From assembly GCA_963781885.1 (NCBI GenBank), contig CAWAHW010000002.1, positions 1,312,001 to 1,376,000 of the forward strand: a stretch of DNA of 64,000 bases. The letters are read 5' to 3'. A model generated the notes under the pieces. That model ran no database searches. It saw only the letters and a list, made by a program, of their open reading frames with translations, and was not told the origin of the DNA. This document shows positions 18,664 through 35,173 of this stretch, piece after piece; positions within the stretch are counted from its first letter, which is position 1; the number at the start of each line of letters is the position of its first letter. Made by a program: the position numbers and the translations under genes. Source of the DNA: an uncultured Spirochaetota bacterium. Lineage in GTDB: Bacteria; Spirochaetota; Spirochaetia; SZUA-6; Fen-1364.

Positions 18664-18795
18664 AGGCGGTCAACGCGCGCGGCCACGGTATTCAGCATTG
18701 GCGCGGCGCGGCATTTTTCAGCCGGTCATATCGCCGCCGGTGGCGTCTTGACTTCCTGGGGCATCGACATACACTTCCCTGGGAGATCCGAAAAA

Positions 18796-19215: not shown

Positions 19216-19220
19216 CGCGC

Positions 19221-19250
19221 TTGACACGAGCGATGCGGCCTGGCTACAGT
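19221..19250 (+). promoter_or_regulatory. sigma70-type promoter of the tRNA
   Basis: TTGACA-N18-TACAGT. Confidence 0.6.
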
Positions 19251-19259
19251 CCAGCGCAG

Positions 19260-19334
19260 GGGCGGCTAGCTCAGTTTGGTTAGAGCACCAGCTCGACACG
19301 CTGGGGGTCACTGGTTCGAGTCCAGTGCCGCCCA
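19260..19334 (+). tRNA. tRNA-Val(GAC), CCA end not encoded
   Basis: Acceptor GGGCGGC/GCCGCCC-A; D-arm GCTC...GAGC; anticodon arm CCAGC-TCGACAC-GCTGG; T-arm ACTGG-TTCGAGT-CCAGT. Confidence 0.95.
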
Positions 19335-19488
19335 TAGGCATGGAGGGACCGCGCGAGTCCCTTCAACGTGTTCCATAGCTCCGATATGCGCGAACGCGAA
19401 ACGACTTCCACTCCTAAAAAGCGGGGGTAGAGCTTTCATCGTCGAGCGGCGTCAACAGGCTCGGGGCGTGCCGCGGAGGAGTGCGGGA

Positions 19489-20136
19489 ATGGCGGACAAG
19501 GTTCCTCAAAGCGCGCGTATTGCCGACGGCTTCTCTCTCATCAGTTTCGGTTTTGTCGCCATGTACGTTTTCGATGCCGGCGACTGTCTCATTGCCTTCG
19601 ACACAGGAATGCGCGCGGGCACTCTTCTCGCCGAGTTCGCGAAGCTGGGCCTCGACCCGTCGCGGGTACGCCATGTCTTCCTCACGCATTCGGACATGGA
19701 TCATACCGGAGGCCTCCGTGCCTTTCCCGGCGCACAGGTATATCTCAGCCGGGACGAGCTTCCCATGGTGACGCGCGCGAAGCCGCGCTTCTTCAGCTTC
19801 GTCTTCAACAAACGCCTTGCGGCGGGGTACCAGACCCTGGGCGACGGAGAAGAGCGGCGCATCGGGAATGCCCGCATTCGCTGCCTGATGACGCCGGGGC
19901 ATACGCCGGGCTCGATGTCTTTTCTCATCAACAAAAAGATGCTGATCGTCGGTGACATCTTGAATCTGGACAAGGGAAAGGCAGTCATGGACCGGCCCAG
20001 GATCAACATGAACCACGTCCAGCGCAAGGCATCGATAGAAAAAATTGCGCGCGTGACCGGCGTCGACCTGCTGTGCACGATGCACAGCGGCTATACCGGC
20101 GATTTCGCCGCAGCCATGAAGGACTGGCAGACATAG
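19489..20136 (+). CDS. MBL-fold metallo-hydrolase
   Basis: THSDMDHTGG, TPGHTPGS, GD, H motifs; GGAGG RBS. Confidence 0.85.
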   Translation: MADKVPQSARIADGFSLISFGFVAMYVFDAGDCLIAFDTGMRAGTLLAEFAKLGLDPSRVRHVFLTHSDMDHTGGLRAFPGAQVYLSRDELPMVTRAKPRFFSFVFNKRLAAGYQTLGDGEERRIGNARIRCLMTPGHTPGSMSFLINKKMLIVGDILNLDKGKAVMDRPRINMNHVQRKASIEKIARVTGVDLLCTMHSGYTGDFAAAMKDWQT

Positions 20137-20258
20137 CCCCTGTCAGGCGCGGCGCGTGGAAAAGAGATCCGTGGGAAAGTCGCTTCACGGCGATGCGGAT
20201 TGACCATTGATGGCATTCCCTGTAGCTTCTTGGCGTTGACGTGCTCTTTCGGACCCGC

Positions 20259-20624
20259 ATGAAGCTCAGGATTCTCGATTACATCGCGATTGCCCTCTGT
20301 CTGCTGGTTATCGGTGGATTCTCTCTGTATGCCTACGCCGGAAGGAGCAGCGGGGGAGACGTCGTCATAGAGGCGTCCGGCTCGCAGTGGATTTATCCCC
20401 TGTCGACGGACAGACGGGAGGCGATCAAGGGCCCCCTGGGCGATACGATCGTCGTCATCAAGGCGGGCAAGGCGTTCGTTGAAGACTCCCCCTGTCCCGA
20501 CAAGCTGTGCGTGCACATGCCGGCAATCTCGAAGCCGGGGCAATGGATCGCCTGCCTGCCGAATCGAGTCTTCGTTCGCGTCCGGGGTTCCAGTGGCCAG
20601 GAAATCGACGATCTCTCTTACTAA
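20259..20624 (+). CDS. NusG domain II / DUF1312-like extracytoplasmic protein (EetA-like)
   Basis: N-terminal TM segment; GPLG, DSPCPDKLCV, IACLPNRV. Confidence 0.85.
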   Translation: MKLRILDYIAIALCLLVIGGFSLYAYAGRSSGGDVVIEASGSQWIYPLSTDRREAIKGPLGDTIVVIKAGKAFVEDSPCPDKLCVHMPAISKPGQWIACLPNRVFVRVRGSSGQEIDDLSY

Positions 20625-21148
20625 CCGGTTGGATCTCGTTGCCTTCATGGGGGCGATCTGTCTTTTTCTCTCCGCGATCGAATACATGATACCCAAGCCG
20701 ATCCCTTTCCTGCGGGTCGGCATCGCGAATGTGCCGATCCTCCTCTGTCTTGACATCCTGCCCGGTGCCGCTCCTGCTCCTCGTGGTGGTTCTCAAGGTG
20801 ATCGGCCAGGGGCTGATCGGCGGCACGCTCATCTCCTACGTGTTCCTGTTTTCCGCGGTCGGCTCATTTGCAAGCGCGCTCTCCATGCTCCTGTTCCGTC
20901 GGCTCTTTTCCACGCGCATCACCCTGGTCGGCGTGGGTGTGCTCGGCGCGCTCTTCAGCAACATCACGCAGATCCTGCTCGCGCGTGTCCTGATATTCGG
21001 GGAAGGCGCGTGGCTCATCGCGCCGCCCTTCCTTGCGCTGGGGACGGTCACGGCGACCCTCCTGGGTTTTTTTGCAGAGAGGTTCGCCGCCCGCTCCCGC
21101 TGGCTCGTCTCGGTGCGGAGCAGGGTCGCCGCTTCGAAGGCATCGTAA
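20593..21148 (+). CDS. Gx transporter / heptaprenyl diphosphate synthase component I family protein (EetB-like; frameshift at 20761-20763)
   Basis: LSAIEYMIPKPIPFLRVGIAN, then GTLISYVFLFSAVGS, GVLGALFSNITQ in the second frame; start uncertain. Confidence 0.8.
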
Positions 21149-21789
21149 TGGCGCGGCGGCAACAGGGCTCCTCGCTCCTTCAGCAGAACGCCTCTGCCCG
21201 CGTTCTTTTTCTCACCGGCGCCCTCCTCTTTCCCTCCTTCCTCCTCCAGCAGGACATCGCGATACGCGCCGCGCAGATCCTTCTTTTCCTTCTTCTCAAT
21301 CTGCTGAGCGGAAGGAGAATCAGGTTTCTGCAATACCTCGTCGTCAGCGCGGGCATCGTCATCTTCAACCTCGTGATCCCCACGGGCCGCGTGCTCGTTT
21401 CCCTGCTCGGTCTGGCCGTGACGGAAGGGGCGCTGAAGAGCGGGCTTCTGAAAGCCACGGCCATGACGGGGCTCATCGCGCTCTCCCAGTTCTCCATCCG
21501 CGGGGAGCTTCGATTCCCCGGTCGCGTCGGCGGACTGGTCGGACGATCGCTGTTCTATTTCGAGCGCATCATGGGAGGCCGGAAGAAGATCGACCGCAAG
21601 GACATCATCGGGAGCGTCGACGCCCTCCTGTTGGAGGTCCAGGCTGCGGGTCCGGCGCTCGCCGGCGAGACAGAAGACCCCGTGCCCACGACCCTGGCGG
21701 GCTACTCCATCCTCCTGCTGAGCGTCGTGGCGTGCTGGGGAGCATACGCCTTCACGCTCATGCACCCGCATCCGATCTGGGGCGGCTGA
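21148..21789 (+). CDS. Membrane protein resembling a shortened EcfT (FmnA-like)
   Basis: TAATG coupling to the upstream gene; IFNLVIPTGRVLVSLLGLAVTEGALKSGL resembles the EcfT/CbiQ mid-region. Confidence 0.55.
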   Translation: MARRQQGSSLLQQNASARVLFLTGALLFPSFLLQQDIAIRAAQILLFLLLNLLSGRRIRFLQYLVVSAGIVIFNLVIPTGRVLVSLLGLAVTEGALKSGLLKATAMTGLIALSQFSIRGELRFPGRVGGLVGRSLFYFERIMGGRKKIDRKDIIGSVDALLLEVQAAGPALAGETEDPVPTTLAGYSILLLSVVACWGAYAFTLMHPHPIWGG

Positions 21790-21844
21790 GCGGGGCGGCC
21801 CGCGCCGATTGTCCCGCAAGCCCCGTTTTGCTACGCTCCGTGCC

Positions 21845-22762
21845 GTGATTCGTGAGCTCGTCACAAATGTCGTGCGATTCGGTTTCGACTTCCGCTCGTG
21901 GCGGGCCGGCTTCAAGGCGTTGCGGGCACCCTCGCTCGTCATTGCGGCTTTTTCGTGCGCGCTGGGCATTGTACTTGCCTTCCACGATGGGCGCGGGGAC
22001 CTCCTGAATGCCGCGGCCGTCCTGGTCACGGGTCTGCTCCTCCAGGCGGGAGTCAATCTCGTCAACGACTTCTTTGAGTTCCGCCAGCGCCGTGTCGATG
22101 ACAAGGTCCATGCTCTTGGTTTTTCCCCGAAGGACCGGGACCTGCTGGAGATCTACATCTTCCTCGTCGGCCTCGCGCTCTTCGGCCTTGCGGGCCTTTT
22201 CGGACTTTTCCTGGCGTGGAGGGTGGGGTGGCCCATCATCGTACTGGGCGCATTCGGTTTCATGACGGGATTCTTCTACACGGGTGAGCCCCTGAACTAT
22301 AAAAGAAGGGGTCTCGCGGTCCCGCTGGTTTTTTTCATCATGGGTGTGCCGATGATCGCAGGCTCGTACTATGCCGTTGCCCGTACCCTCACCGCGGGTG
22401 CCGTCTTTGCATCGATCCCGGTCAGCTTCCTCATTTCCCTCATCCTGCTTGCCAATGAGCTTCGCGACTACGAATCGGACGTGCGCTACGGCATCCGCAC
22501 GCTGACGGTGCGCATCGGCTACAACAGGGGAATCGTCCTGTTCTGCATCCTGCTTTTCTGCGCGTATGCGAGCCCGATCGTGCTCTGGCTGTGCGGGGCC
22601 ATTCCCTTTCTCTGGCTGTTTTACGTTGCGCTGCCATTCATCGTGCCGCCTTTTCTCTTCATATGGAGACCGCCGGAGAAGCGTCACCCCCTCATTCCGC
22701 TCGTGATGCTCCACCACCTTGCATACGGCGTCCTGTACTGCGTGGCGTTTTTCATGCGATAA
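21845..22762 (+). CDS. menA: UbiA/MenA-family prenyltransferase (DmkA-like)
   Basis: LRAPSL, NLVNDFFEF...D, FYTGEP, LLANELRDYESD...GIRTL; GTG start 7 nt after TTGTCC-N17-TACGCT. Confidence 0.8.
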   Translation: MIRELVTNVVRFGFDFRSWRAGFKALRAPSLVIAAFSCALGIVLAFHDGRGDLLNAAAVLVTGLLLQAGVNLVNDFFEFRQRRVDDKVHALGFSPKDRDLLEIYIFLVGLALFGLAGLFGLFLAWRVGWPIIVLGAFGFMTGFFYTGEPLNYKRRGLAVPLVFFIMGVPMIAGSYYAVARTLTAGAVFASIPVSFLISLILLANELRDYESDVRYGIRTLTVRIGYNRGIVLFCILLFCAYASPIVLWLCGAIPFLWLFYVALPFIVPPFLFIWRPPEKRHPLIPLVMLHHLAYGVLYCVAFFMR

Positions 22763-22788
22763 ACGCCGCTGGAAAGAGGAGAAGAAAG

Positions 22789-23728
22789 ATGATCCGAAAT
22801 CGTGTCCTTGCCTTGCTTTTCGCGGTATGCTGCGCGGCGCCGCTTGCCGCGCAGCTTTCCATCGGGCTCATGCCGGCGTGCAATTCCATCCCGTTTGTCG
22901 TCGCGGAGAAGAAGGGACTATTCGCCGCGCACGGCCTGCAGGTGACCCTCGTGCCCTTCACCGGTCAGCTGGAGCGCGAGACCGCGCTGCAAACGGGCGC
23001 CCTGGACGGGACCGTCTCCGATCTCATCAATGCAATACAGTCATGGTCCCACGGCTCGGGCGCCCGGGTGACCTCCGTGACGGAAGGCAATTTCGCGCTG
23101 CTTTCATCGCCCGGCTCTTCCCTGAAAAGCCTCTCCGACTGGAAGGCCCGCACGAGCGGTTCTGTGCGCACGGGACTGCTGGAAAACAGCATTGTCTTCT
23201 ACCTCAGCGAGCGCATGGTCATGGCCGCGGGCGCGGACCCGAAGCGCATCGAGCTCGTGCCCATCGTGCAGATTCCCGCGCGCCTGGAGATGCTGCTTGC
23301 CGGGCAAGTCGAAGCGGCATGCCTGCCGGATCCCCTCTGCCACCCTGGCAGCTTCCCGCGGCGCCCACCTGCTCGCTGATTCGGACGGCATGGGAACGAC
23401 ACCGGGCGTGCTCCTGTTCACCGCCAAAGCCATTGCGGAGAAGCGCAATCAGATCGTCCAGCTCTACGCGGCCTACAACGACGCCGTGCGCGAGGTGAAC
23501 GCCCATCCCGAGGACTATCGCGCCGCCATCGTTGCCGGCTGCGAGTTTCCGCCCGCGGTCACGAGCGTCATGAAGATACCGCAGTTCAAGCCGGCATTCC
23601 TTCCGTCGGAGGCGCTCGTGCGGGACGTTGCCCTTTGGATGAAGGAAAAATCACTGGTCGATCGCGTCCCCGGATACACCGACCTCATCGTCGCCGACAT
23701 TCTCGGCTCTCATGCTGGCGCTCAGTGA
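22789..23728 (+). CDS. NitT/TauT-type ABC transporter substrate-binding protein (frameshift near 23337)
   Basis: Signal peptide; IGLMP...PFVVAEKKGLF, ERETALQTGALDG, IPARLEML...ACLPDP. Confidence 0.8.
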
Positions 23729-24452
23729 TTGCACCGCTGCCTACGATGCCGGCCCCGTGCTGCAGGCCGTCAGCCTGACCGTGCAGGAAGGGAGAACGGG
23801 ATGCATCATCGGGCCCAGCGGATGCGGCAAGACGACCCTTCTGATGCTGGCGGCGGGTCTGAAGGAGCCGCTGACCGGCGAGGTGGATCTTGACGGCGCG
23901 CCGGTGTGTGCGGGTGACAGGCGCATCGGGCTCATCATCCAGCACTACGGGCTGTTTCCGTGGCTGACGGCGCGCGGCAATGTCGCGCTGGGACTGCGGA
24001 TGCGTCATGTGCCGAAGCCCGAGCTGACGGCCCGGACCGACCGCGAGCTCGACCGCGTCGGCCTGCGGGATGTCGCCGACCGCTACCCGCTGCAGCTGAG
24101 CGGAGGCCAGCAGCAACGGGTGGCGATTGCGCGCTGCATGGCGCTGGATCCGCGGCTCCTGCTCATGGACGAGCCTTTCTCGGCGCTTGATGCCTTGAGC
24201 AGGGAGACGCTGCAGGACCTCCTCCTTGCATCCCTTGCGGCGCGGCATATGACCGTTCTCATTGTCACGCACAGCATCGAGGAGGCGGCCATCCTCGGCG
24301 CGCGCATCTGGGTGATGGAAGGCGGGCCGGGCCGTATCAGGACGTGCTTCGAGAATCCCGGTCAGGGCAGCGAGGGCTACCGTCGGACGCCGGCGTATTT
24401 CCGCGTGTGCACCGAGCTTCGACGCGCGATGCAGGAAGGGACGTCCCCATGA
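23712..24452 (+). CDS. ABC transporter ATP-binding protein (NitT/TauT type)
   Basis: GPSGCGKT, LSGGQQQR, LLMDEPFSALD, VTHSIEEA. Confidence 0.9.
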   Translation: MLALSDCTAAYDAGPVLQAVSLTVQEGRTGCIIGPSGCGKTTLLMLAAGLKEPLTGEVDLDGAPVCAGDRRIGLIIQHYGLFPWLTARGNVALGLRMRHVPKPELTARTDRELDRVGLRDVADRYPLQLSGGQQQRVAIARCMALDPRLLLMDEPFSALDALSRETLQDLLLASLAARHMTVLIVTHSIEEAAILGARIWVMEGGPGRIRTCFENPGQGSEGYRRTPAYFRVCTELRRAMQEGTSP

Positions 24453-25201
24453 GCCGGGCCGTGCGCGGCGGCATCCTTGGCGTCGTGGCGCTCACGGCGC
24501 TTTGGTGGGCGCTCTCCCTGGTCATTGCCGGCGGCTTTCTCCCGTCGCCGATCGTCGTCGTGCCCCGTCTTCTCTTCCTGTTGCCGCGCGGTCTCCTGAT
24601 TCACGTCGCGGCGAGCCTCGGGCGCATCGGGGTCGCGCTCGGCGTCTCTATCGTCACCGCCGTGCCGGCGGGTCTTGCAATCGGACGGAGCAAAGTGCTC
24701 GACCGGCTCTTCTCTCCCATCGCCTACCTCCTTTACCCGGTGCCCAAGATCGCGCTCCTGCCGGTCATCATGCTCCTCTTCGGGCTCGGGAACGTGTCGA
24801 AGGTGGTGATCGTCTTTCTCGTGCTCTTCTTCCAGGTGCTCGTCGCCACGCGAGATGCGGCCCACCAGATACCCGCGCAGTACCTGCTTTCCCTCCGATC
24901 GCTCGGGGGAACGCGCATGCAGGCGGCGCGCTACGTCCTCCTGCCCGCCTTGCTGCCTTCCCTCCTGTCTTCGCTGCGCATCGGCACGGGCACGGCGCTT
25001 GCCGTGCTCTTTTTCGCGGAGACGTTCGGCACCAGCCGGGGCCTTGGCTGGTTCGTGATGGAGAGTTGGATGCGCATGTCGTACGTCGACATGTTCGCCG
25101 GCATCCTCTGTCTCGGCGTCGTCGGCCTGGGCATATTCCTTGCCATCGATGCGCTCTACCGGCGTCTCTGTCGATGGCAGGTGGCCGCCCGCGCTACTTG
25201 A
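24449..25201 (+). CDS. ABC transporter permease (NitT/TauT type)
   Basis: YPVPKIALLP, EAA-like loop SLRSLGGT, multiple TM segments. Confidence 0.9.
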   Translation: MSRAVRGGILGVVALTALWWALSLVIAGGFLPSPIVVVPRLLFLLPRGLLIHVAASLGRIGVALGVSIVTAVPAGLAIGRSKVLDRLFSPIAYLLYPVPKIALLPVIMLLFGLGNVSKVVIVFLVLFFQVLVATRDAAHQIPAQYLLSLRSLGGTRMQAARYVLLPALLPSLLSSLRIGTGTALAVLFFAETFGTSRGLGWFVMESWMRMSYVDMFAGILCLGVVGLGIFLAIDALYRRLCRWQVAARAT

Positions 25202-26231
25202 GCACCGTGTAGCCTGTGTCGGTGAGCGTGAATCGAGACCGCAGCCCCGGGGTCACATAGATCTCCTTGTTCTCCGTGATGAAGACCGCTTCGATCGTGC
25301 CCGACCTGGATTCTACGAACTTGCGGCCCTCATCCAGGCCCAGGGTGAAGACAAGCGTGTCGTAGCCGTCCGCGGTGAGGGAATCCGGCGCGAGTATGGC
25401 GACGGCCGAAAGCCCGTTCCACGCCGGGAAACCCGTGCGCGCATCGAGGATGTGGAAATAGCGCTTGCCGTTCTGCTCGAAGAAGCGCTCGTAGGTGCCC
25501 GCGGTCGTGACCGAGCCGCCCGTGATGTCGACATAGCCGATCATCGTGCCGCGCGCTTCGAGGGGATTCTGGATCCCGATGCGCCATGGCGCGCGGTCGG
25601 GCTTGGTGCCCATGACAAGGACGTTGCCGCCCAGGTCCACCAGCGCGGAGCTCACGCCGTTGGCGCGCAGGATGCGCACCACCTCGTCTGCGGCGTAGCC
25701 TTTCGCCACCGAGCCGAGGTCGATCCCCATGCCGGGCTTTTTGAGGAACACCGTGGAGTTTTTCTCATCCAGCACGACGTCGCGGTAGTTGATGAGCCGG
25801 ATGGCCGCTTTTATCTCCTTGTCGCCGGGGATGCGCGCCGCCGGAGTCCCGATGCCCCAGAGCTGGACCAGCGGCGCGACCGTGATGTCGAAGGCGCCGT
25901 TTCCGTCCGCGGAATAGCGAAGACCGTTGGCGATCACGTCGAAAACATCCGGGGTCACCTTGACCGGGCGGAACCCGGCGGCCTTGTTGACCTCGATGAG
26001 CTCGCTGTCGGGCTTGTTGATCGTCATGCGCGCTTCGATCTCCGCCAGGCGCGCGAAAGCCTTGTCGAGCACCGCCTCGGAGCCCCCCGCGTAGAGCCGG
26101 ATGAGGCAGGTCGTGCCCAGCAGGTTGTATTCCGTTCGCTCTAGGGGCGGAGCGGCCCACGCGGCCAGAGAAGCAAAAAAAACAAGCGCGGCGGCTGAAA
26201 GCCCCCGCGCGCGATGGATCGAAAATGTCAT
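25194..26231 (-). CDS. apbE: FAD:protein FMN transferase ApbE (FmnB-like)
   Basis: LGT, AFDITV, IDLGSVAKGYAAD, DLGGN, WRIGIQNP, YERFF...YFHILDARTG; signal peptide without a lipobox. Confidence 0.92.
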   Translation of the reverse strand: MTFSIHRARGLSAAALVFFASLAAWAAPPLERTEYNLLGTTCLIRLYAGGSEAVLDKAFARLAEIEARMTINKPDSELIEVNKAAGFRPVKVTPDVFDVIANGLRYSADGNGAFDITVAPLVQLWGIGTPAARIPGDKEIKAAIRLINYRDVVLDEKNSTVFLKKPGMGIDLGSVAKGYAADEVVRILRANGVSSALVDLGGNVLVMGTKPDRAPWRIGIQNPLEARGTMIGYVDITGGSVTTAGTYERFFEQNGKRYFHILDARTGFPAWNGLSAVAILAPDSLTADGYDTLVFTLGLDEGRKFVESRSGTIEAVFITENKEIYVTPGLRSRFTLTDTGYTVLK

Positions 26232-26281
26232 GCGCCTTTATACCATGCGGGCGCGGGCCGTGGGCACTGGCAGCGGTCCAG

Positions 26282-26309
26282 TTGACAATTCCGAGTAGGG
26301 GGATACGAT
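26282..26309 (+). promoter_or_regulatory. sigma70-type promoter of the ndh2-like gene
   Basis: TTGACA-N16-TACGAT; GAGGGGAG RBS before ATG 26334. Confidence 0.7.
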
Positions 26310-26333
26310 GTGTGGATTCCTGAGGGGAGAATT

Positions 26334-28451
26334 ATGCCAGACACGATTCGCATCGCCGTGCTTGGTGGCGGGTACGGCGGCGTGGAGGCTGCCAAAGTGC
26401 TCGAGCGCAGGCTCGGCGGACGCAGCAATATAGAGATCAGTCTCATCGACCGAAACTCCTATCACACCCTGATGACCGAGCTCCACGAGGTCGCCGGGGG
26501 CAGGGTCGAGCCGGAGTCCGTGCAGATCAGCTTCCGCAAGATATTTGGCGCCCGCCGCGTCAGGCTGGTGACGGACCGCATCCGCACGATCGATTTCGAA
26601 AAGCGGGTCATGATTTCCGACCTTGCGCAGTATCCCTACGATTACCTGGTCATCGGCGCGGGCGGCGAGCCCGAGTACTACGGCATTCCCGGCATCAAGG
26701 AGAACTCCTTCTCCCTGTGGTCATTCGATGACGCGATGCGGATCCGGCGGCACATCGAAGACCTCTATCGGCGCGCGTCCGCGGAACCGGACCCCGTGCG
26801 GCGGTCGGAGATGCTCACATTCGTCGTGGCGGGTGCCGGCTTCACGGGCATCGAGCTCGCCGGCGAGCTGATGGATCAGCGCCGCGTGATGTGCCGGCAG
26901 TACCTCATCGACGAGAAGGACGTGAAGATCATCGTCGTGGAAGCGCTGGATGCGATCATCCCCAACCTCCCCGGGAAGCTGCAGGCGCGCGCGCGCCAGT
27001 ACCTGGAGCGGCGCGGCATCCAGTTCATGCTCCATTCCCCCATCGTCGGCGCGGAGGCCGGCAAGGTGCTGCTCGGTGGCGGCGTGTCGGTCGCCACGCA
27101 GACGTTCATCTGGACGTGCGGCATCCAGGGCTGCGAGTTCGCGGGCAATCTCGCCCTCACCAAGGGGAAGTGCTCCAACAGGCTCTGCCGCTTCGCCACG
27201 ACGCAGGGGACCTGCGGGGTCAAGGACTGCACGTTCTCCAAGGATCGCTATATCGAGGGGAAGCGGGGAAGGCTCCTCACCAACGAGTACATGCAGTCGG
27301 TGGACTACAACAACGTCTACGTCGTGGGCGACGTCGCGTGGTACGTCGAAGGCAAGAAGGTCATGCCGCAGATCGTGGAATCCGCCGTGCAGACGGCGGA
27401 AACAGCCGCGCACAACATCATCGCCGACATCGACCATGAGGCGATGAAGACGTTCACGTCCAACTATCACGGCATCATGGTGTCGCTGGGCACCTACGCG
27501 GGCGTCGCGCACGTCATGGGCATTTCCCTGACGCGCATCTTCGCCATCGCGGTGAAGCACATGATCAACGTCGTGCACCTCTTCGGCGTCGCCGGGGTGA
27601 ACCAGGTCTGGGAATACGTGAAGCACGAGTTCCTCGACGTGAAGAACGCGCGCTCGTTCATTGGCGGTCTTGCCTCTTACAAGATACGCGGCTACTGGCC
27701 GCTCCTCCTGCGCATGTGGCTGGGTTTCATGTGGGTGGTGGAAGCGACGAACAAGATCACCCAGGGCTGGCTGGACTTCTCCTCGGGCCAGAGCAAGACG
27801 GGCTGGATGTTCTCCAACGGCGTCGTGCAGGCCGGGATCAAGGCCGCGGATGCCACCAGCTCCGCGTCGGTCTCCGCCGCTGCGGGCGCGGCCGCCGCAC
27901 CCGCCGTGGCAGCCGCGACCTCTGCCGCCTCCCAGGCCGCCAGCGCGGCACCGGCAGTCGCGGCAGCCGCAGCCGATGCGACCTCGGCCGCCTCCCAGGC
28001 GGCCAGTGCGGCGCCGGCCGCTGTCGCCGTTGCCCACACCGCGGCGCCCGGACCGTGGATGGATACGACAAAGACCATCCTGGACCCCCAGTCCGGCGTC
28101 GTGACGTGGTTCCGTCACTGGTTCATGGACGGCATCTTCTCCCACGTCGCCTACAGCTGGTTCCAGGTCATCATCGTCATGACGGAGCTGCTCGTCGGGC
28201 TTGCGCTTTTCGGCGGCTTCTTCACCTGGTGGGCCGCTCTCGTGTCGCTCGGGCTCTGCGTGATCTTCACGTTCTCCGGCATGTTCGCCTGGAACCAGCT
28301 CTGGTTCTTCTTCGCCGCCATCCTCATGCTCGGCGGAGTGGGCAGGGCATTCGGGATCGATTCCTGGACCGTGCCTTTCTTCAAGAGGTGGTGGAACGGG
28401 ACACGATTCGCGCGGCGGACGAGATTCTATGCCGATGGGCCTTCAAAGTAG
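26334..28451 (+). CDS. Type II NADH dehydrogenase with a C-terminal DoxX-like membrane domain (Ndh2-like)
   Basis: VLGGGYGG, TELHEVA, YDYLVIG, VAGAGFTGIELAGEL, VVGD, PQIVE; C-terminal LRMWLG...ELLVGLALFGGFFT...GRAFGID. Confidence 0.9.
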   Translation: MPDTIRIAVLGGGYGGVEAAKVLERRLGGRSNIEISLIDRNSYHTLMTELHEVAGGRVEPESVQISFRKIFGARRVRLVTDRIRTIDFEKRVMISDLAQYPYDYLVIGAGGEPEYYGIPGIKENSFSLWSFDDAMRIRRHIEDLYRRASAEPDPVRRSEMLTFVVAGAGFTGIELAGELMDQRRVMCRQYLIDEKDVKIIVVEALDAIIPNLPGKLQARARQYLERRGIQFMLHSPIVGAEAGKVLLGGGVSVATQTFIWTCGIQGCEFAGNLALTKGKCSNRLCRFATTQGTCGVKDCTFSKDRYIEGKRGRLLTNEYMQSVDYNNVYVVGDVAWYVEGKKVMPQIVESAVQTAETAAHNIIADIDHEAMKTFTSNYHGIMVSLGTYAGVAHVMGISLTRIFAIAVKHMINVVHLFGVAGVNQVWEYVKHEFLDVKNARSFIGGLASYKIRGYWPLLLRMWLGFMWVVEATNKITQGWLDFSSGQSKTGWMFSNGVVQAGIKAADATSSASVSAAAGAAAAPAVAAATSAASQAASAAPAVAAAAADATSAASQAASAAPAAVAVAHTAAPGPWMDTTKTILDPQSGVVTWFRHWFMDGIFSHVAYSWFQVIIVMTELLVGLALFGGFFTWWAALVSLGLCVIFTFSGMFAWNQLWFFFAAILMLGGVGRAFGIDSWTVPFFKRWWNGTRFARRTRFYADGPSK

Positions 28452-28454
28452 GGC

Positions 28455-29420
28455 ATGAAGTCCTTCTGGGACGGGCAGCCGGAAATCTCCCGCGATCTTG
28501 AATGCGTGCGGGAAACCATCGCGCGCTGCGCGGCCACGGAAGACGCCGACGTCCACGCCGCGATCGGCCAGCTGCTCTCAACCAGCGGCAAGATGCTGCG
28601 GCCCGCCTTCGTCCTGCTTGCGTCGCGCTTCGGCGCCCCTGACCGGGAGCGGATCATCCGCATCGGCGCGGCGGTGGAAATGCTCCACATGGCCACACTC
28701 GTTCACGACGACATCATCGACGGGGCGAAGCTCCGCCGCGGCGTGGCCACCCTGAACGCGTCGAACGGCCCGCGCACGGCCGTGCTGGTGGGCGACTGGC
28801 TTTTCGCTTCCTGCTTCAGCCTGATCGCGGACATCGCCCGCACGGAAAATGCCCGCGCCCTTTCCCACATGGTGGCCCGAATCTGCGCCGGGGAGATCGG
28901 GCAGTCCGCCGACAGGTTCACCGTCCACACGAGCAAGCGACGCTACCTGCGGCGCATCACGGGCAAGACCGCCGCCCTTTTTTCCCTCTCCCTCTACGTC
29001 GGCGCGGTGGAAAGCGGCTGCACAGAGGCGGTGCAAGGCATCCTCCGCAGGCTGGGATTCTGCGTGGGCATGTGCTTCCAGATCGTGGACGACATCCTCG
29101 ATTTCTCGCCGGGCGCATCGGAAATCGGCAAGCCCGCGGGCAGCGACCTCCTCCAGGGGGTGCTCACCCTGCCGACAATACTTGCGCTGCGTGCGGACGA
29201 CGGCAGCCTGGCGAGCCTCATTGGCAGGGGACCCCTGTCCCGGCGGGCGGCGGCGCGCGCCGGGCGGATGGTTGTCGCCCTTGGCGGCATCGAAGCTGCC
29301 CGTTGTGAGGCGGAAGCTTATACGCGCCGCGCCGAACGGGAGATCCAGCGGCTTCCACCGTCAGAGGCCCGGGATATCCTGGGCGAGGTGACGGCAAGGC
29401 TCCTGAACCGTACGTGGTAG
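28455..29420 (+). CDS. Polyprenyl diphosphate synthase (DmkB/HepT-like)
   Basis: GKMLRP, HMATLVHDDIID...RRG, KTAALF, FQIVDDILD, GKPAGSDL. Confidence 0.9.
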   Translation: MKSFWDGQPEISRDLECVRETIARCAATEDADVHAAIGQLLSTSGKMLRPAFVLLASRFGAPDRERIIRIGAAVEMLHMATLVHDDIIDGAKLRRGVATLNASNGPRTAVLVGDWLFASCFSLIADIARTENARALSHMVARICAGEIGQSADRFTVHTSKRRYLRRITGKTAALFSLSLYVGAVESGCTEAVQGILRRLGFCVGMCFQIVDDILDFSPGASEIGKPAGSDLLQGVLTLPTILALRADDGSLASLIGRGPLSRRAAARAGRMVVALGGIEAARCEAEAYTRRAEREIQRLPPSEARDILGEVTARLLNRTW

Positions 29421-29464
29421 CACCGCTCGTTGCGCGGCCCGGACGGTACCCGGACGACATACAA

Positions 29465-29493
29465 TTGACAGCCCGGGGCGCGCATGATACTTT
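29465..29493 (+). promoter_or_regulatory. sigma70-type promoter
   Basis: TTGACA-N17-TACTTT with extended -10 TG; AGGAGG RBS. Confidence 0.7.
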
Positions 29494-29525
29494 GGGAGAA
29501 CGATATCTCGACACAGGAGGGATAA

Positions 29526-30050
29526 ATGAAAAGAAGAGTGCTTGCAATCGCGATCGTTCTGATTCTCTGCGTCACCGTCGGTTCGTTTGCCGCCGAGAAG
29601 AAAAGCTCCACCATTCCCTGGTGGGTCACCTACGGCGGGACGGATGTCGCCGTTGGCGTCGGCTATACCCAGGATCTTTTCGGAGCCTCGGCTGCTCTGA
29701 ATCTCACATTCGGACAGTTCGACATCGGTCCGATCCCCCTGTCATGGGGAGGCACGGTCGGCGGCGAATTCGGCTTCGGCTATGGGCTCGGACTCGGCGT
29801 GGGTGCATTCGTCACGCTGGAAACAGGATGGGACTTCGGCAGCATCTGGAAGTTCGAGTGGAGGGTCGGGATCGGCCCCGCTATCGCACTTGACCTTGGG
29901 GGCGGCTTCGGGATCGGGTTTGGCCAGTATGCATCCTGGACCTGGTGGTTCACGGATGCCTTTGGACTCACTGCCCAGGATATGTGGTCATATACCTTCG
30001 GCACCGCCGACATGTCGGCATACACCATCGGGGTGGAGTTGAAGCTGTAG
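29526..30050 (+). CDS. Small putative outer-membrane beta-barrel protein
   Basis: Signal peptide ending SFA; about 8 Gly/aromatic-rich amphipathic strands ending IGVELKL; has its own promoter and terminator. Confidence 0.7.
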   Translation: MKRRVLAIAIVLILCVTVGSFAAEKKSSTIPWWVTYGGTDVAVGVGYTQDLFGASAALNLTFGQFDIGPIPLSWGGTVGGEFGFGYGLGLGVGAFVTLETGWDFGSIWKFEWRVGIGPAIALDLGGGFGIGFGQYASWTWWFTDAFGLTAQDMWSYTFGTADMSAYTIGVELKL

Positions 30051-30069
30051 AATCGCTGATACGTGAAAG

Positions 30070-30100
30070 AAGAAGCCCCGGCTCTCCGGGGCTTCTTTTT
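30070..30100 (+). terminator. Intrinsic terminator
   Basis: AAGAAGCCCCGG-CTCT-CCGGGGCTTCTT-TTT. Confidence 0.85.
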
Positions 30101-30120
30101 ATCATGCGTCGGGAAGGCAC

Positions 30121-30261
30121 ATGACGCCGCTTGCATCGAAAATCCTGATTGTTGGAATACCCTTCGTCCTTTCGGTTTCCTGGTTCGTGTTCTGGGTGGT
30201 CCGGTTGAAAAGGGCCGCGAAGAAGGCGCGGACTTCATCAAGCGCGGACAAAAGACCGTAG
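30121..30261 (+). CDS. Small (46 aa) single-pass membrane protein, below the ORF-track cutoff
   Basis: MTPLASKILIVGIPFVLSVSWFVFWVVRLKRAAKKARTSSSADKRP*; GGGAAGG upstream. Confidence 0.55.
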   Translation: MTPLASKILIVGIPFVLSVSWFVFWVVRLKRAAKKARTSSSADKRP

Positions 30262-30313
30262 CGGGACGTGGCGGGCCTTGACGCAATTCATTCCTCAGCC
30301 CCTATTGTAGCCT

Positions 30314-31810
30314 GTGATATCGTCGCGGGCTGTGCACCTTCAGATCGAAAAGCTCTGCTTCTCCTATCCTGCGCTGTCGGGAGAGCCGGGTCCGCTCGTC
30401 CTTGATGGCCTCAATTTTGGCGCGGCGCAAGGGGAGCTCGCCGTCATACTCGGTGCAGCGGACGCGGGCAAGACAACCCTTGCCCGCATCGTCGGCGGCT
30501 TCGTGCCGCGATTCAGCGGGGGAAGGCTGGCCGGATCGCTGCGCATCGCCGGAACGGAAATCCTCGGCACGCCGCCCTACGAGCTCATGGAGCGCGTCGG
30601 GGTGGTGTCACAGGACTCCGACGAGCAGCTCATCACCACGCGCTGCGACACCGAGGTGGCCTTTGCGCTAGAGTCGCTCGGCATGCCCCGGGAGCAGATG
30701 CGGGAGCGGGTGGAGTCGTCCCTTGCCCGGTTCGGCCTCACGGAGTTTCGAAGCCGTAATCCTTCGACGCTCTCCGGCGGGGAGAAGAAGCGCCTGCTCT
30801 TTGCCTGCCTGGACGCCATCGGTCCAGAGATATGGCTGCTCGACGATTCACTCGGAGAGCTGGACCAGGGATGGAAGGCACGGATACTCGCCCTTCTCGC
30901 GGAAGCGGGCAGGACCGTGATCGTATTCGATGCCCGATTGCCGGAGCATGCCGTCGGCCGCGCGCAGAGCTACGCGCTCCTGGAGGATGGCCGCATTGCC
31001 GCCCGGGCTGCACAGGTCGACGAGCCCGGCTTCCCGGAAGCCCTTGCCGCTGCGGGCATCACGCCCCGAGCATCCGCGTCCATTCAAATCCGGCCCACCC
31101 CGCATCCGGTCCTTCAGGCAGAAGGGGTCCGGTTCAGCTTTGCCGGCCCCGACGGATTTTCCCTCCAGATAGAATCTCTCTGTCTGAACGGCGGCGAGGT
31201 ATGCGCCCTTGCGGGCCGGAACGGATCGGGCAAGTCGACATTGGGCAGGATCCTGTGCGGCCTTCTGATGCCGCAGGCAGGCGCGTTCACCCTTGAGACG
31301 GGGAAGGGCAGGCGGCAGGCGGACGCGGACGATCTTTCCGCTTCCATCGGCTACCTTTTTCAGAATCCCGATCACCAGATCTACCTCCCGACCATCCGCG
31401 AAGAGCTCTCACTCGGGCTCCAGCGTCGGGGCCTGGCCCGCGGTGAGATTGAAAACCTGGTCGCCGATGCTGTCGCGCTCTTCCGCCTCCCCGATGCCGG
31501 CACGCCGCCTGCCCTGATGAGCTATGGCGCGCGCAAGAGGTTGCAGGCAGCGACCTATTACCTTCTGGACCGTGCCCTCCTCATCCTCGACGAGGTCGAC
31601 GCCGGCCTCTCCAGCAGGGAAGTGGAGGCGCTCATCGATTCACTCGGGCGACGCGGCGCCGGCATCCTCCTCATCACCCACGACCTGGCCCTGGCACGCG
31701 GCATGGCGGACAGGGTGCTGGCGATGGACCGGGGCAGGATCGTCGCGGACCTGCCGGCCGGTCAGCTTGCCCGGCTCCCGTCGCTGCTCGAAGAGGCGGT
31801 CGGCGCATGA
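30314..31810 (+). CDS. ECF transporter fused double ATPase
   Basis: Two NBDs: GAADAGKTT/LSGGEKKR and GRNGSGKST/FQNPDHQ/ILDE. Confidence 0.85.
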   Translation: MISSRAVHLQIEKLCFSYPALSGEPGPLVLDGLNFGAAQGELAVILGAADAGKTTLARIVGGFVPRFSGGRLAGSLRIAGTEILGTPPYELMERVGVVSQDSDEQLITTRCDTEVAFALESLGMPREQMRERVESSLARFGLTEFRSRNPSTLSGGEKKRLLFACLDAIGPEIWLLDDSLGELDQGWKARILALLAEAGRTVIVFDARLPEHAVGRAQSYALLEDGRIAARAAQVDEPGFPEALAAAGITPRASASIQIRPTPHPVLQAEGVRFSFAGPDGFSLQIESLCLNGGEVCALAGRNGSGKSTLGRILCGLLMPQAGAFTLETGKGRRQADADDLSASIGYLFQNPDHQIYLPTIREELSLGLQRRGLARGEIENLVADAVALFRLPDAGTPPALMSYGARKRLQAATYYLLDRALLILDEVDAGLSSREVEALIDSLGRRGAGILLITHDLALARGMADRVLAMDRGRIVADLPAGQLARLPSLLEEAVGA

Positions 31811-32577
31811 ATCTCGAGCTGTACCGCAGCGGCACGAGCTTCCTGCATGCATTCGATGCGCGCGCAAAGATTTTCCTGCTCGTGCCGCTTGTTGTCTGCT
31901 TTTTCCTGCCGCAGCCCTGGCAGCTGTTGCTTTTCTTCACGGCGGCCATCATGGCAGTCGTCGCCGCTGCTCTCGGCCCCCGCGAGCTCCTGCCGCCATT
32001 GAAGGCAATCGGCGCCGTCCTCATCCTCATCTGTCTGCTCACGCCGCCTTTTCACCGCGACGGGCAGGTCGTGCTTCGGCTCTTCGGCTTTGCCCTGCTG
32101 ACCGCGGACGGCCTGCGTGAGACGGCGGTCATGCTCCTGCGCTTCCTCGGCATCACCTTCGGGGTTTTCGCCATGCTCCGCACGCTTCCGCTGGACGATC
32201 TGGTGCTCGGGCTGCGATGGTTCCGCCTGCCCTATGCCGCGTGTCTGGTGATGATCGTGACGCTGCGCACGATCCCGTCGCTTGCGGGCACCTGGCGGAA
32301 CGTGCTCGACGCGCATCGCCTGCGCGGAGGTCCGGTGGCGCAGCAAGGGCGCAAGAAGATCGTTGCGCGCTATCTGCCGCTCCTCACCTCGGTGCTCATC
32401 GAGGCGGTGAAGAGTATTCCTGCCCTTGCGATGGCCCTGGAAAGTCGGGGTTTCGGCCGGCGCAACCCGCGGACTGCTTTCGCGCAGCTCCCGGCGGGGC
32501 ACGCGTTCTTCCGCGACATGACGGTGTGCCTGCTCCTGTCCGCGGCGCTTCTCTGGCCGGCATTCGTGCGCTGGTGA
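31807..32577 (+). CDS. ecfT: ECF transporter T component
   Basis: SFLHAFDARAK, DAHRLRG, AMALESRGF. Confidence 0.85.
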   Translation: MNLELYRSGTSFLHAFDARAKIFLLVPLVVCFFLPQPWQLLLFFTAAIMAVVAAALGPRELLPPLKAIGAVLILICLLTPPFHRDGQVVLRLFGFALLTADGLRETAVMLLRFLGITFGVFAMLRTLPLDDLVLGLRWFRLPYAACLVMIVTLRTIPSLAGTWRNVLDAHRLRGGPVAQQGRKKIVARYLPLLTSVLIEAVKSIPALAMALESRGFGRRNPRTAFAQLPAGHAFFRDMTVCLLLSAALLWPAFVRW

Positions 32578-32635
32578 GCTCCGGCATTCTTTCCGCGTCG
32601 CGCGTTTTCTCCTATAATGAAGGGGTGAGGTGCGA

Positions 32636-33163
32636 ATGAAAGACGATCGACCCATCATGTCTCCCGCGTTCCGCGTGGCGTCCATCGCCGTCCTGGCAGC
32701 CGTGACGACGGTGCTCACGCGCCTTGTGCAGATACCGACGACCGCGAGCAATTACATCAATCTCGGGGACGTTATCATCGTTTTTACCGCCTTGATATTC
32801 GGCCCCTTTTCCGCCGCGCTCGCCGGCGGCGTCGGCACCGCGCTCGCCGACCTGCTGAGCGGACCGTTCGCGTTCTGGGCGCCCATTTCGCTCGTCGTCC
32901 ACGGTCTGCAGGGTCTGCTGATCGGCCTTATCGTCCGCGCGCGGCCCTCGAACGTCCCCCTTGCGATCGCGGCCGGCGCCGTCGGAATCGTCATCATGGC
33001 AGGCGGCTATTTCGTCGCGGGGGGCTTCATCACCGGTTTCGGGCCTTCGCTCACGGCCATACCGCTCAACTGCCTCCAGGGAGGCGTCGGCGTGGTTCTT
33101 GGACTGCTCGTGGCCGCGACGGTGGAGCGGGCCTATCCGCCCGTCCGCCAATGGAAATGGTAG
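32636..33163 (+). CDS. ECF transporter S component (HmpT/PdxU-like)
   Basis: YINLGD...FGP...AGGVGTALADLLSG...WAP; TATAAT at 32613-32618. Confidence 0.8.
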   Translation: MKDDRPIMSPAFRVASIAVLAAVTTVLTRLVQIPTTASNYINLGDVIIVFTALIFGPFSAALAGGVGTALADLLSGPFAFWAPISLVVHGLQGLLIGLIVRARPSNVPLAIAAGAVGIVIMAGGYFVAGGFITGFGPSLTAIPLNCLQGGVGVVLGLLVAATVERAYPPVRQWKW

Positions 33164-33849
33164 AAACGCTCGCGGCCGCATACGTCGCGGTGCAGCAGAG
33201 AATCGAGGCAGCGGCGCGCCGGGCGGGCCGCCCGCTCTCAGGTATCCGTCTCATGGCGGTGAGCAAGGGCTTTCCGCGCGCCGCTGTGGATGCCGCGCTG
33301 GCCGCAGGGCTCCGGCTTTTCGGTGAGAACAGGGTGCAGGAGGCGGAAGGGAAGTTCGCGGAACTGCCGACGGACGTCGAGCTCCACCTGATCGGACATC
33401 TCCAGCGCAACAAGGCGCGCACGGCAGCCGCCGTCTTCTCCTGCGTGCAGTCGATCGACAAGACCGAGACGGCGGAAGCGCTGGACGCGCATTGCGCGCA
33501 ACGCGGCACCGTCATGGACGTGCTGCTGGAGCTGAACGCAAGCGGCGAGCAGTCGAAATCCGGATTTGCCGACCGAGACCGGCTTCTCCGCGGCCTTGAC
33601 GCGATTTCCCGTCTCACTCATCTCCGCGTGAGGGGGCTCATGACCGTGGGTCCACTCAGCGATGAGGAAACCAGGATTCGGTCCGCCTTCTCCCTCCTGC
33701 GCAGCCTCTTCGATGAGATTCGCGACGGGCAGACCTCTTTCGATACGCTTTCCATGGGAATGTCGGGCGATTTCGAGCAGGCCATCGAGGAAGGGTCCAC
33801 GCTCGTGCGAATCGGCACGGCGCTTTTCGGGCCTCGGCAACCTCAATGA
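33151..33849 (+). CDS. yggS: YggS-family PLP homeostasis protein
   Basis: MAVSK, FGENRVQE, HLIGHLQRNK, LSMGMSGDF, VRIGTALFG. Confidence 0.95.
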   Translation: MEMVETLAAAYVAVQQRIEAAARRAGRPLSGIRLMAVSKGFPRAAVDAALAAGLRLFGENRVQEAEGKFAELPTDVELHLIGHLQRNKARTAAAVFSCVQSIDKTETAEALDAHCAQRGTVMDVLLELNASGEQSKSGFADRDRLLRGLDAISRLTHLRVRGLMTVGPLSDEETRIRSAFSLLRSLFDEIRDGQTSFDTLSMGMSGDFEQAIEEGSTLVRIGTALFGPRQPQ

Positions 33850-34238
33850 GCACAAGGGTCGTGCGCGTGACGGCGCTTGCCGTCCTCCTCTGCCTCGGCG
33901 CGGCCACCGTCGGCCTGGCCGACGACCACACGCCGAAGCCGTACGACCCCGACGAGTTTGCCGCGTGGATGCGCGATCTCTGGCGCGCTGAGGCCGTTTT
34001 TGTTGGCGCATTCCCGTTCGCGATCTTCGTGACGTTTGAAGTCTACGACACCATTCGCTACGCCGAGGATGGGTTTCGTGACCCCAGCTATGCCCCCTGG
34101 CCGCTGGGCTCGGGCTCGTCGACGTACTCGACGACCGAATCCACGTGGCTTGCGGTTTCGGCCCTATCCCTTTCCCTGATCGTCGCCGGCATCGATTTCC
34201 TGATCGGTCGCATCAATGAATCCTCCCCGAAGAATTGA
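33846..34238 (+). CDS. Hypothetical membrane protein
   Basis: Signal peptide, PYDPDEF motif, two hydrophobic segments; translationally coupled to yggS. Confidence 0.65.
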   Translation: MSTRVVRVTALAVLLCLGAATVGLADDHTPKPYDPDEFAAWMRDLWRAEAVFVGAFPFAIFVTFEVYDTIRYAEDGFRDPSYAPWPLGSGSSTYSTTESTWLAVSALSLSLIVAGIDFLIGRINESSPKN

Positions 34239-35173
34239 AAGACGCGTCGCGCTTGCCGCGGACGACGGCGTTCGCCTGGACGTCTTCATCGCCGACCGGC
34301 TGGGTCTTTTTTCGCGCAGCCAGGCCAGGTCACGCGTCGTGTCCACGACGGTGAACGGAAAGCCGGCGCGGCTGGCGCGCAAGCTGCGCGTCGGAGACCT
34401 CGTACGCGTGGATTGGGCCGACCCTCCGCCCAGCGAGCTTGTCCCGGAGAACATCCCGTTGTGCGTCCGATTCGAAAACGAGGACGTCGTGGTCATCGAC
34501 AAGCCGCAGGGCATGGTTGTGCACCCGGGAAGCGGCAATGCGGGCGGCACCATGGTGCATGCGCTCCTCTTCCGCTACGCCGGCTTTACGGATCGGTTTG
34601 CGGAGTCCGGGAGCAGGCCGGGAATCGTCCATCGACTGGACAAGGAGACCTCCGGCATCATCATCGTGGCGCGCCACCCCGCGGCCCATGAGATGCTTGC
34701 CGCCCAGTTCCGCGACCGCAGCGTGCGCAAGCGCTACCTTGCCATCGTCCAGGGCGTGCCGGCCGAGCGGGAGGGCAGGATCGACAAGCGCATCGCAAGG
34801 GACCCGCACGACAGGAAGAGATTCACCTGCGTCGCCACCGGTGGAAGGACCGCCTCGACGCGCTACCGCGTGTTGCGCAGCTTCGGCGCGGGAAAAGGCT
34901 CATATTCACTGGTTGTTCTGGCGCCGCGCACGGGGCGTACGCACCAGCTGCGCGTCCACATGAAGTCCATCGGAACCCCCATACTCGGCAACCCCGTCTA
35001 CGGCCGGCCCAGACGCGCGCTTTCCCGCCAGCAGGCTCATGCTCCACGCCCGCAGTCTCACCATCAGGATACCCGGAGAGGAGCAGGCGCGCACATTCGT
35101 CTCACCGATGCCCGATCGGTTCCGCGGCGTGCTGCGGGAGATTCAGAACTTTTCGCCCAGGACGGAATTGTAG
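34216..35173 (+). CDS. rluD: RluA/RluD-family pseudouridine synthase (frameshift near 35008-35010)
   Basis: RLDVF S4 domain, KPQGMVVHPG, GIVHRLDKETSG, TGRTHQLRVH; LMLHA motif resumes in the +1 frame. Confidence 0.85.

Follow-up and report, generated by a model that had tools for sequence, protein, structure and literature searches.

We analysed a 64,000-nucleotide stretch of the genome of an uncultured Spirochaetota bacterium (GenBank assembly GCA_963781885.1, contig CAWAHW010000002.1, positions 1,312,001 to 1,376,000; the window, below) that contains ndh2, a gene for a membrane-anchored type II NADH dehydrogenase (NDH-2). The loop between the first and second transmembrane helices (TM1 and TM2) of Ndh2 carries three copies of a seven-residue sequence resembling D-x-x-[ST]-G-A-[ST], the motif to whose last residue the transferase ApbE attaches flavin mononucleotide (FMN). 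Our reading, to which we give a probability of roughly 0.6, is that this loop is an electron exit arm flavinylated by ApbE. A first-pass annotation of the same DNA had already proposed flavinylation; the proposal gains from relatives, in which the motif is conserved in the same loop and is in many cases canonical, a gain that comes from comparison and not from chemistry. The features of ndh2 are given here one per line, with residues counted from the GTG at 26310.

26310..28451, plus strand: ndh2, NDH-2 with a C-terminal four-TM DoxX-like domain, 713 aa from the GTG
26349..27635, plus strand: cytoplasmic NADH:quinone oxidoreductase (NDH-2) domain, residues 14-442 (Pfam; predicted local distance difference test score, pLDDT, mostly >85)
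27693..27761, plus strand: TM1, residues 462-484, predicted to run from inside to outside (AlphaFold helix 452-484; distribution of lysine plus arginine, K+R)
27762..27848, plus strand: conserved segment, predicted extracytoplasmic, residues 485-513, GWLDFSSGxSKTGWMFSxGVVQAG (pLDDT ~80)
27849..28061, plus strand: disordered Ala-rich loop with the three motifs, residues 514-584 (pLDDT <50)
27849..27869, plus strand: motif 1, DATSSAS, residue 514, candidate FMN-bearing Ser520 (aligned motif in most homologues)
27912..27932, plus strand: motif 2, AATSAAS, residue 535, candidate FMN-bearing Ser541 (translation)
27975..27995, plus strand: motif 3, DATSAAS, residue 556, candidate FMN-bearing Ser562 (translation)
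28152..28349, plus strand: TM2-TM4 of the DoxX-like bundle, residues 615-680 (AlphaFold)
28350..28448, plus strand: Lys/Arg-rich tail, predicted cytoplasmic, 7 K+R in 33 residues

Translation of the open reading frame confirmed what had been noticed about the three motifs, whose first codons are at 27849, 27912 and 27975, an interval of exactly 63 nt each time. The peptide ATSAASQAASAAPA is indeed present twice, at residues 536 and 557 in copies 2 and 3, and the 42-nt stretches concerned differ at five places, each of them a synonymous change at the third position of a codon; were all three positions equally likely, the chance of all five falling on the third would be about 0.004, or (1/3)^5. 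Between whole 63-nt units the DNA identity is 46/63 for units 2 and 3, 36/63 for 1 and 2 and 35/63 for 1 and 3, only units 2 and 3 being clearly alike, and Tandem Repeats Finder reported no 63-nt array. Three occurrences of A[TV]S[AGS]A[ST], the number found in the window loop, were reached in none of 20,000 composition-preserving shuffles of that loop (mean 0.05), while the looser [ST][AGS]A[ST] is not rare there (3 observed, mean 0.95, p 0.05). A complex prediction with ApbE (27-344), the loop (498-585), flavin adenine dinucleotide (FAD) and Mg gave a score of 0.07 (mark 0.32), which tips the balance neither way.

Alignment of homologues showed the motif to be conserved in the same loop across the Ndh2-DoxX family, with a varying number of copies. 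Among 8000 scored candidates 258 homologues were found at E<=0.001, and of the 120 listed, 117 carry the relaxed motif once or more in their C-terminal loop, with 1 to 11 copies per loop at varying positions. In the 94 full-length homologue sequences used for the alignment the loops are 39-155 aa long, and a looser regular expression finds 0-15 copies in each, with at least two in 84/94 proteins. Loop composition is 53% Ala, 11% Thr and 10.5% Ser. Even so, there are 227 occurrences of A[TV]S[AGS]A[ST], spread over 84/94 loops, as compared to 4.5 +/- 2.2 in 500 shuffles (maximum 13). The loose four-residue pattern is only about 3-fold enriched (363 versus 111 in shuffles), and the signal therefore resides in the longer pattern. 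A logo drawn from 251 loop instances reads D/E/A, A, T/V, S/T, A (85%) or G (14%), A and S (72%) or T (28%), in agreement at 6/7 positions with DAVSGAT, found in an FMN_bind protein of the source genome itself. In each of the three motifs the Ala that precedes the final Ser/Thr lies in an aligned column at least 90% conserved, and the position of the first motif, directly after the conserved segment, is aligned best of all. By this comparison the motif exceeds low-complexity chance and persists where the remaining loop is unalignable, though the sequences are related.

In many relatives the loop carries the textbook motif itself. At 30-45% identity the loop that follows TM1 has DAVSAAS, EAVSSAS (four copies), DAITAAT or DATTGAS, with DAISSAT, LVSGAS and DSGAT as further forms, and 27/42 long representatives match the motif expression, several others doing so by eye. 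In a phylum sample of 301 genomes Ndh2 was found in 11, namely the source genome and ten other spirochaetes. A clear motif is present in 9/10 of these other spirochaete loops, for example DASGAT and EVSGAT in L034 or AVTGAS and DASSGAS in L028, the tenth (L027) having only the degenerate AVAAAS and DTVVAAS. A Clostridia-type group, one member of which is Anaerotruncus, has DAVSGAT, DAVTGAT, DVVTGAT and DATSGAT. Among 80 named loci, mostly of Bacillota and chosen as the best of 521 confirmed relatives, D/E-x-x-[ST]GA[ST] occurs in 10, [ST]GA[ST] in 6 more and a variant with Gly replaced by Ala or Ser, or with Ala at -3, in 58; 6 have none. We also sampled 401 genomes of the phylum of one Bacillota locus, with a match in 81, and one or more sites, LVSGAS, LVSGAT, LVAGAS or LVSGSS for example, are present in all 44 short-loop loci analysed there (those with a long open reading frame). 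Because canonical motifs stand at the same place in the loop of relatives, the window's form appears as one extreme of a graded series that leads, at the other extreme, to the textbook motif. In short-loop Ndh2 proteins of about 580-640 aa (L171-L198) the single TM1-TM2 site, which reads LVSGSS, LVAGAS, LVSGAS/T or LSAGAS, is followed by a conserved P-x-G-P-x-T-P-x-W-Y element, and many of these genes lie beside ApbE and FMN_bind genes.

The exact 21-residue spacing noted in the window found no support as a functional feature among the 94 homologues, in which motif-to-motif spacings run from 3 to 47 and 21 residues accounts for 13 of about 210. Since copy number and spacing vary among homologues, the 21-residue period appears to be the incidental product of a local duplication and is not conserved. 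This variation, free even among close relatives (0-15 copies, spacings of 3-47), together with the recent 63-nt duplication that gave units 2 and 3 and the merely 3-fold enrichment of the loose pattern, would suit an unmodified flexible spacer, in which a Ser/Thr-Ala pattern fit for a protease-resistant linker spreads by replication slippage. We regard such a spacer as unlikely, since a pattern of 6-7 residues is retained at 30-45% identity across phyla while the rest of the loop is unalignable, since short non-repetitive loops keep a single conserved site, and since the differences between copies are synonymous only. A shade less credible is flavinylation of one site alone, either the first or the last before TM2, with the extra spirochaete copies neutral or spare. 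Short-loop relatives do have a single site, the first motif is the best aligned and directly follows the conserved segment, and tags in internal loops are flavinylated at lower yield (PMC12052999); against this, the later copies retain the complete motif and differ by synonymous changes only, and multi-copy loops dominate in spirochaetes (the 84/94 proteins given above).

The flavinylated arm requires that the loop face the periplasm, and the predicted topology agrees with the first-pass annotation in turning it away from the cytoplasm. An AlphaFold model of Ndh2 built on 94 sequences (mean pLDDT 79.6) has a confident NDH-2 domain, a helix at 452-484 that includes the TM1 peptide PLLLRMWLGFMWVV, and helices after the loop at 596-607, 615-635, 639-655, 661-680 and 683-696. 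The share of K+R residues is 4/22 just ahead of TM1, falls to 4/130 between TM1 and TM2 and rises again to 7/33 in the C-terminal tail. Four TM helices, a cytoplasmic NADH domain and this positive-inside distribution therefore lead us to predict a periplasmic loop. Within the segment at 485-513, which may serve to position the first motif, G493, F501, S502 and Q507 are invariant across the 94 sequences; in the DoxX-like bundle Q619 and E626 are invariant even among distant relatives. The bundle has no conserved His or Cys and is thus probably free of haem and of iron-sulfur clusters.

The domains of Ndh2 are those of a FLEET-type enzyme, an NDH-2 catalytic domain (Pfam Pyr_redox_2, 107 bits, residues 14-273; Pyr_redox, 39 bits) followed by a C-terminal transmembrane domain. 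Near the C-terminus a DoxX match (PF07681) reaches 17.4 bits, under the gathering cut-off of 23.6, and several Ndh2 homologues carry a precomputed PF07681; Pfam gave no match in Ndh2 to FMN_bind (PF04205) at E<=0.01. Folded alone, the C-terminal domain has a pLDDT of 68.7. Among solved structures it fits NACHO/TMEM35A best (9h9e_C; Z 10.0, with 116 residues aligned, root-mean-square deviation 3.9, 17% identity and a lead of 2.3 Z units over the next row), although for helical bundles such a Z may reflect a common arrangement only. TMEM35A is presumably a member of the DoxX superfamily. A sequence search of solved structures with the C-terminal domain gave no match, and a search of genome contigs with the window's C-terminal domain alone gave no related loci. 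The true start of ndh2 is probably the ATG at 26331 (706 aa), since the alignment with homologues begins there and since a promoter-like site reaches to 26309, just one base ahead of the GTG.

The immediate neighbour of ndh2 is, as the first-pass annotation had it, a divergent apbE gene (25194..26231, minus strand), whose product has a signal-like N-terminus, so that the organism has a secreted ApbE encoded next to the candidate substrate. Among the named loci ApbE lies within 10 kb in 54/74 that bear the motif versus 0/6 that do not, and the 14 motif-bearing genomes without an adjacent ApbE that we tested all have ApbE elsewhere. In the Bacillota sample Ndh2 is adjoined by ApbE in 27/44 loci and by FMN_bind genes in 20/44. 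The ten other spirochaetes have one ApbE per genome, and at their ndh2 loci a polyprenyl synthase gene is adjacent in 10/10 and UbiA in 4/10. A typical operon of the named loci, that of Lacrimispora, is closely similar to the window locus, with the order Ndh2, polyprenyl synthase, lipoprotein, ApbE, UbiD, UbiA, UbiX, NMT1-like protein and ABC ATPase.

The lipoprotein of that operon, which has two repeats, stands between polyprenyl synthase and ApbE in 53/80 named loci (L074:11883-12995 in Lacrimispora sp.) and shows the block YGMKKAS-x-I-G-KEW-EQ without variation. [ST]GA[ST] is absent from all 53 copies, so that no candidate ApbE substrate other than the Ndh2 loop is visible in these 53 operons. 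The lipoprotein had no Pfam, NCBIfam or PDB sequence match, and a Lacrimispora-type query found none in the window's genome. An Atlas cluster for it bears the automatic name 'putative FMN-binding domain-containing protein' (score 0.96).

Some Gram-negative general O-glycosylation systems target Ala/Ser/Pro-rich segments of periplasmic proteins. The least credible of the alternatives, that the motif Ser/Thr carries another periplasmic modification of this kind or serves another envelope enzyme, its ApbE likeness being coincidental, would suit a low-complexity, disordered loop that is rich in Ala, Ser and Thr and extracytoplasmic by prediction, and would suit the 9/10 other spirochaete loci in which ApbE is not adjacent, but it fails to account for a likeness that spans six to seven positions and not merely one Ser, for fully canonical motifs (DAVSGAT and others) in relatives whose loops are not Ala-rich, or for ApbE in the same operon in 54/80 named loci, and no glycosyltransferase was seen among the Pfam matches at the locus.

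It had also been suggested that the flavinylated arm replaces PplA, the FMN_bind protein of the FLEET locus, and this survives in part. The window has no FMN_bind gene, as judged with our own FMN_bind hidden Markov model (HMM), the genome's four FMN_bind matches all lying elsewhere. Moreover, five Ndh2 loci that we verified to be motif-less (L045, L046, L047, L048 and L053) have a short loop and, in 5/5 cases, an FMN_bind gene directly downstream of ndh2, with 2-4 domains, canonical VD-VSGAT and Pfam E of 6e-31 to 2e-65:

L045:6039-7427, L046:10722-11453, L047:10590-11726, L048:3598-5130, L053:7034-8560: FMN_bind genes of the motif-less clade

This clade includes metagenome-assembled genomes titled Treponema sp., Spirochaetes bacterium, Defluviitaleaceae and Turicibacter, and no ApbE was found within the locus flanks covered. 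The HMM, which was built from the genes of these five loci, matches exactly those five of the 80 named loci and none in the window or the ten spirochaete loci. Across 130 non-identical loci an FMN_bind neighbour accompanies 1/50 loops with at least two copies, 20/69 with one and 5/11 with none, or 25/80 for zero-or-one-copy loops versus 1/50, a trend in the direction that replacement would predict, though weakly supported. Against the suggestion stand single-site loops that coexist with FMN_bind neighbours (the 20/69 loci above) and the loss of the association in phylogenetically independent pairs. The site therefore looks less like a mere substitute for PplA than like an old, general feature of the Ndh2 family that spirochaetes may have multiplied where the locus is without an FMN_bind carrier. 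The genome's own FMN_bind proteins bear canonical VDDVSGAT, VDFISGAT and VDAVSGAT. The one with VDFISGAT, a secreted protein of 132 aa, adjoins a second ApbE gene (C5:176210-177159), and the two look like a separate enzyme-substrate pair.

Published work on ApbE bears on how far the motif may depart from its textbook form. A seven-residue tag suffices for flavinylation (PMC12052999, section 8), and the same source reports that a Klebsiella fumarate reductase kept flavinylation of about 50% after Gly>Ala or Ala>Val, that Asp>Ala mattered little, that Ser is accepted as the flavinylation residue at lower yield, and that yields also fall when a tag stands in an internal loop. Proteins that carry several flavins, with as many as 13 sites, are known (mSystems 2024, PMC11334425). 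With respect to the electron path, the carriers between reduced demethylmenaquinone and ferric ion were described as not known (Hederstedt 2022, PMC9864754). In E. faecalis, PplA was dispensable for ferric reduction and the FAD-export subunit EetB was required (PMC9864754), EetB and FmnA together being an FAD exporter for flavinylation (Rivera-Lugo 2023, PMC9973259). That PplA is dispensable while EetB is required implies another flavinylated component, and the two sources, taken together, leave room for one. We found no literature that assigns a flavin to Ndh2, and searches on type II NADH dehydrogenase with DoxX, or on Spirochaetes with extracellular electron transfer and ApbE, returned nothing relevant. 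The main text of the flavinylation surveys in eLife 2021 (PMC8238504) and mSystems 2024 (PMC11334425) is without Ndh2 or DoxX, and in two papers on Ndh2 'flavinylated' is confined to the reference lists.

Against this background Ndh2 of the window combines traits of several known systems. Like Ndh2 of Listeria monocytogenes and Ndh3 of Enterococcus faecalis, both FLEET enzymes, it is an NDH-2 with an added C-terminal membrane domain, and like their loci its gene lies beside DmkA/DmkB-like quinone genes, an ApbE-type transferase (FmnB) and parts of a transporter of the energy-coupling factor (ECF) type. Unlike the Listeria FLEET locus, the window is without a PplA-type FMN_bind gene and the host is a diderm spirochaete; the window loop is long and disordered and carries three motif copies. 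PplA and other FMN_bind or multi-FMN_bind proteins (PF04205) share with it a [ST]GA[ST]-like motif, an Asp at -6, an extracytosolic position and a dependence, expected here, on ApbE and exported FAD. In FMN_bind proteins, however, the flavin sits in a folded domain, whereas the candidate sites of Ndh2 lie on a disordered loop of an integral membrane enzyme, with Ala or Ser in place of Gly. Flavin tags and the C-terminal extensions of FMN_red proteins also resemble the loop, in that ApbE modifies a bare motif in an unstructured segment (PMC12052999; PMC11334425), although the tethered flavin of FMN_red folds back into an existing flavin pocket, of which the Ndh2 loop shows no evident counterpart. 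With DoxX/DoxD proteins (PF07681) Ndh2 shares a predicted four-helix membrane bundle, which in Ndh2, unlike in that family, is joined to NDH-2 and interrupted by 130 inserted residues that separate TM1 from TM2.

A number of observations weigh against a flavinylated arm. The strict motif D-x-x-[ST]-G-A-[ST] is matched by none of the three window copies, Gly being replaced by Ser or Ala in all three, as the first-pass annotation had recognised, and Asp by Ala in copy 2, and the data on motif tolerance stem from another ApbE and another substrate. The periplasmic position of the loop is a prediction, and a flavin on a disordered tether, not in a binding pocket, would be unlike most characterised ApbE substrates. 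For every member of the family, flavinylation is argued from likeness between proteins and not from chemistry. ApbE is adjacent in only 1/10 of the other spirochaete loci; it is present in 11/11 Ndh2-bearing genomes versus 229/301 in the phylum sample, a background that makes genome-level co-occurrence uninformative, and 4/5 motif-less genomes also have it. The relation between copy number and FMN_bind neighbours, at 2e-5 in a naive Fisher test, is not significant in phylogenetically independent pairs, of which about one lies in the predicted direction (median p = 1), and the five-locus FMN_bind swap is a single change on the tree. Finally, the ECF transporter at 30314..33163 is possibly a flavin or FAD carrier, and may work inward or outward.

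If the loop is nonetheless an ApbE-flavinylated exit arm, Ndh2 would act as the membrane-anchored NADH dehydrogenase of a FLEET-like locus for extracytosolic electron transfer. NDH-2 enzymes oxidise NADH and reduce quinone, and from what is known of the families the NDH-2 domain would hand the electrons of NADH on to a quinone of the demethylmenaquinone type, synthesised by the products of the UbiA and polyprenyl synthase genes. The DoxX-like bundle may present quinol near the periplasmic face, and is predicted to set the conserved segment, and after it the disordered Ala-rich loop, on the periplasmic side. There the secreted ApbE would move FMN from FAD to the terminal Ser of each motif, that is, to Ser520, Ser541 and Ser562. 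The first flavin, held after residues 485-513 at a fixed distance from the membrane domain, could then take electrons from quinol, and the further flavins on the flexible tether could relay them to periplasmic acceptors. The arm of Ndh2 would thus serve in cis the purpose that PplA and other FMN_bind proteins serve in trans.

A broader proposal, which we offer tentatively and at somewhat less than even odds, is that every Ndh2 of the family, including the short-loop members beside ApbE and FMN_bind genes in classical Gram-positive FLEET loci, has a flavinylated exit site between TM1 and TM2 that would accept electrons from reduced demethylmenaquinone and take them outside, and that spirochaetes multiplied this site into a multi-flavin tether, a protein-borne flavin wire that would need no folded flavin-binding domain. 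If the loop site is used, it could be the missing step that takes electrons from the quinone pool out of the membrane, and would be the flavinylated component implied by the PplA/EetB pattern of E. faecalis. It would also define a new class of ApbE substrate, with multiple sites on an intrinsically disordered loop of a membrane protein, and would extend FLEET-like electron export to diderm spirochaetes.

The genes around ndh2 fit such a function. Pfam identified UbiA, polyprenyl synthase, ApbE and the A, T and S components of an ECF transporter, the components of a FLEET-type locus, and the gene content appears to be that of a Listeria-type flavin-based electron-export locus minus the PplA-type FMN_bind protein. 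The neighbouring features, in order along the window, are as follows.

21809..22762, plus strand: UbiA-family prenyltransferase, DmkA-like (Pfam UbiA, 87 bits)
22786-23728, plus strand: NMT1-like binding protein, split over two frames
23712-24452, plus strand: ABC ATPase
24344-25201, plus strand: ABC permease
25194..26231, minus strand: apbE, flavin transferase with N-terminal signal-like sequence, divergent from ndh2 (Pfam ApbE, 295.6 bits)
26282..26309, plus strand: promoter-like TTGACA-16-TACGAT between apbE and ndh2 (consensus match only)
28455..29420, plus strand: polyprenyl synthase, DmkB-like, directly downstream of ndh2 (Pfam, 197 bits)
29526-30050, plus strand: 174-aa Gly-rich secreted protein without family
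30314-31810, plus strand: ECF fused A/A' ATPase (Pfam ABC_tran; NCBIfam)
31807-32577, plus strand: ECF T component (Pfam CbiQ; NCBIfam)
32630-33163, plus strand: ECF riboflavin-type S component (ECF-ribofla_trS, 107.7 bits; NCBIfam)

The ApbE orthologues of relatives are lipoproteins. The 174-aa protein encoded between polyprenyl synthase and the ECF ATPase has a signal-like N-terminus and is rich in Gly and aromatic residues, which is suggestive of a small beta-barrel; it had no Pfam or NCBIfam match, and tblastn found none in the ten other spirochaete loci. Upstream of apbE, the NMT1-like gene, part of an ABC transporter, is divided between two reading frames that overlap, 22591..23379 and 23192..23728; the piece in the first covers only positions 3-145 of the 216-position NMT1 profile, and the split is either a frameshift or an assembly error. 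An Rfam scan of 18000-36000 found no riboswitch at gathering score and returned tRNA only, the gene in question lying upstream of the locus at 19260-19334 (RF00005, 63.7 bits).

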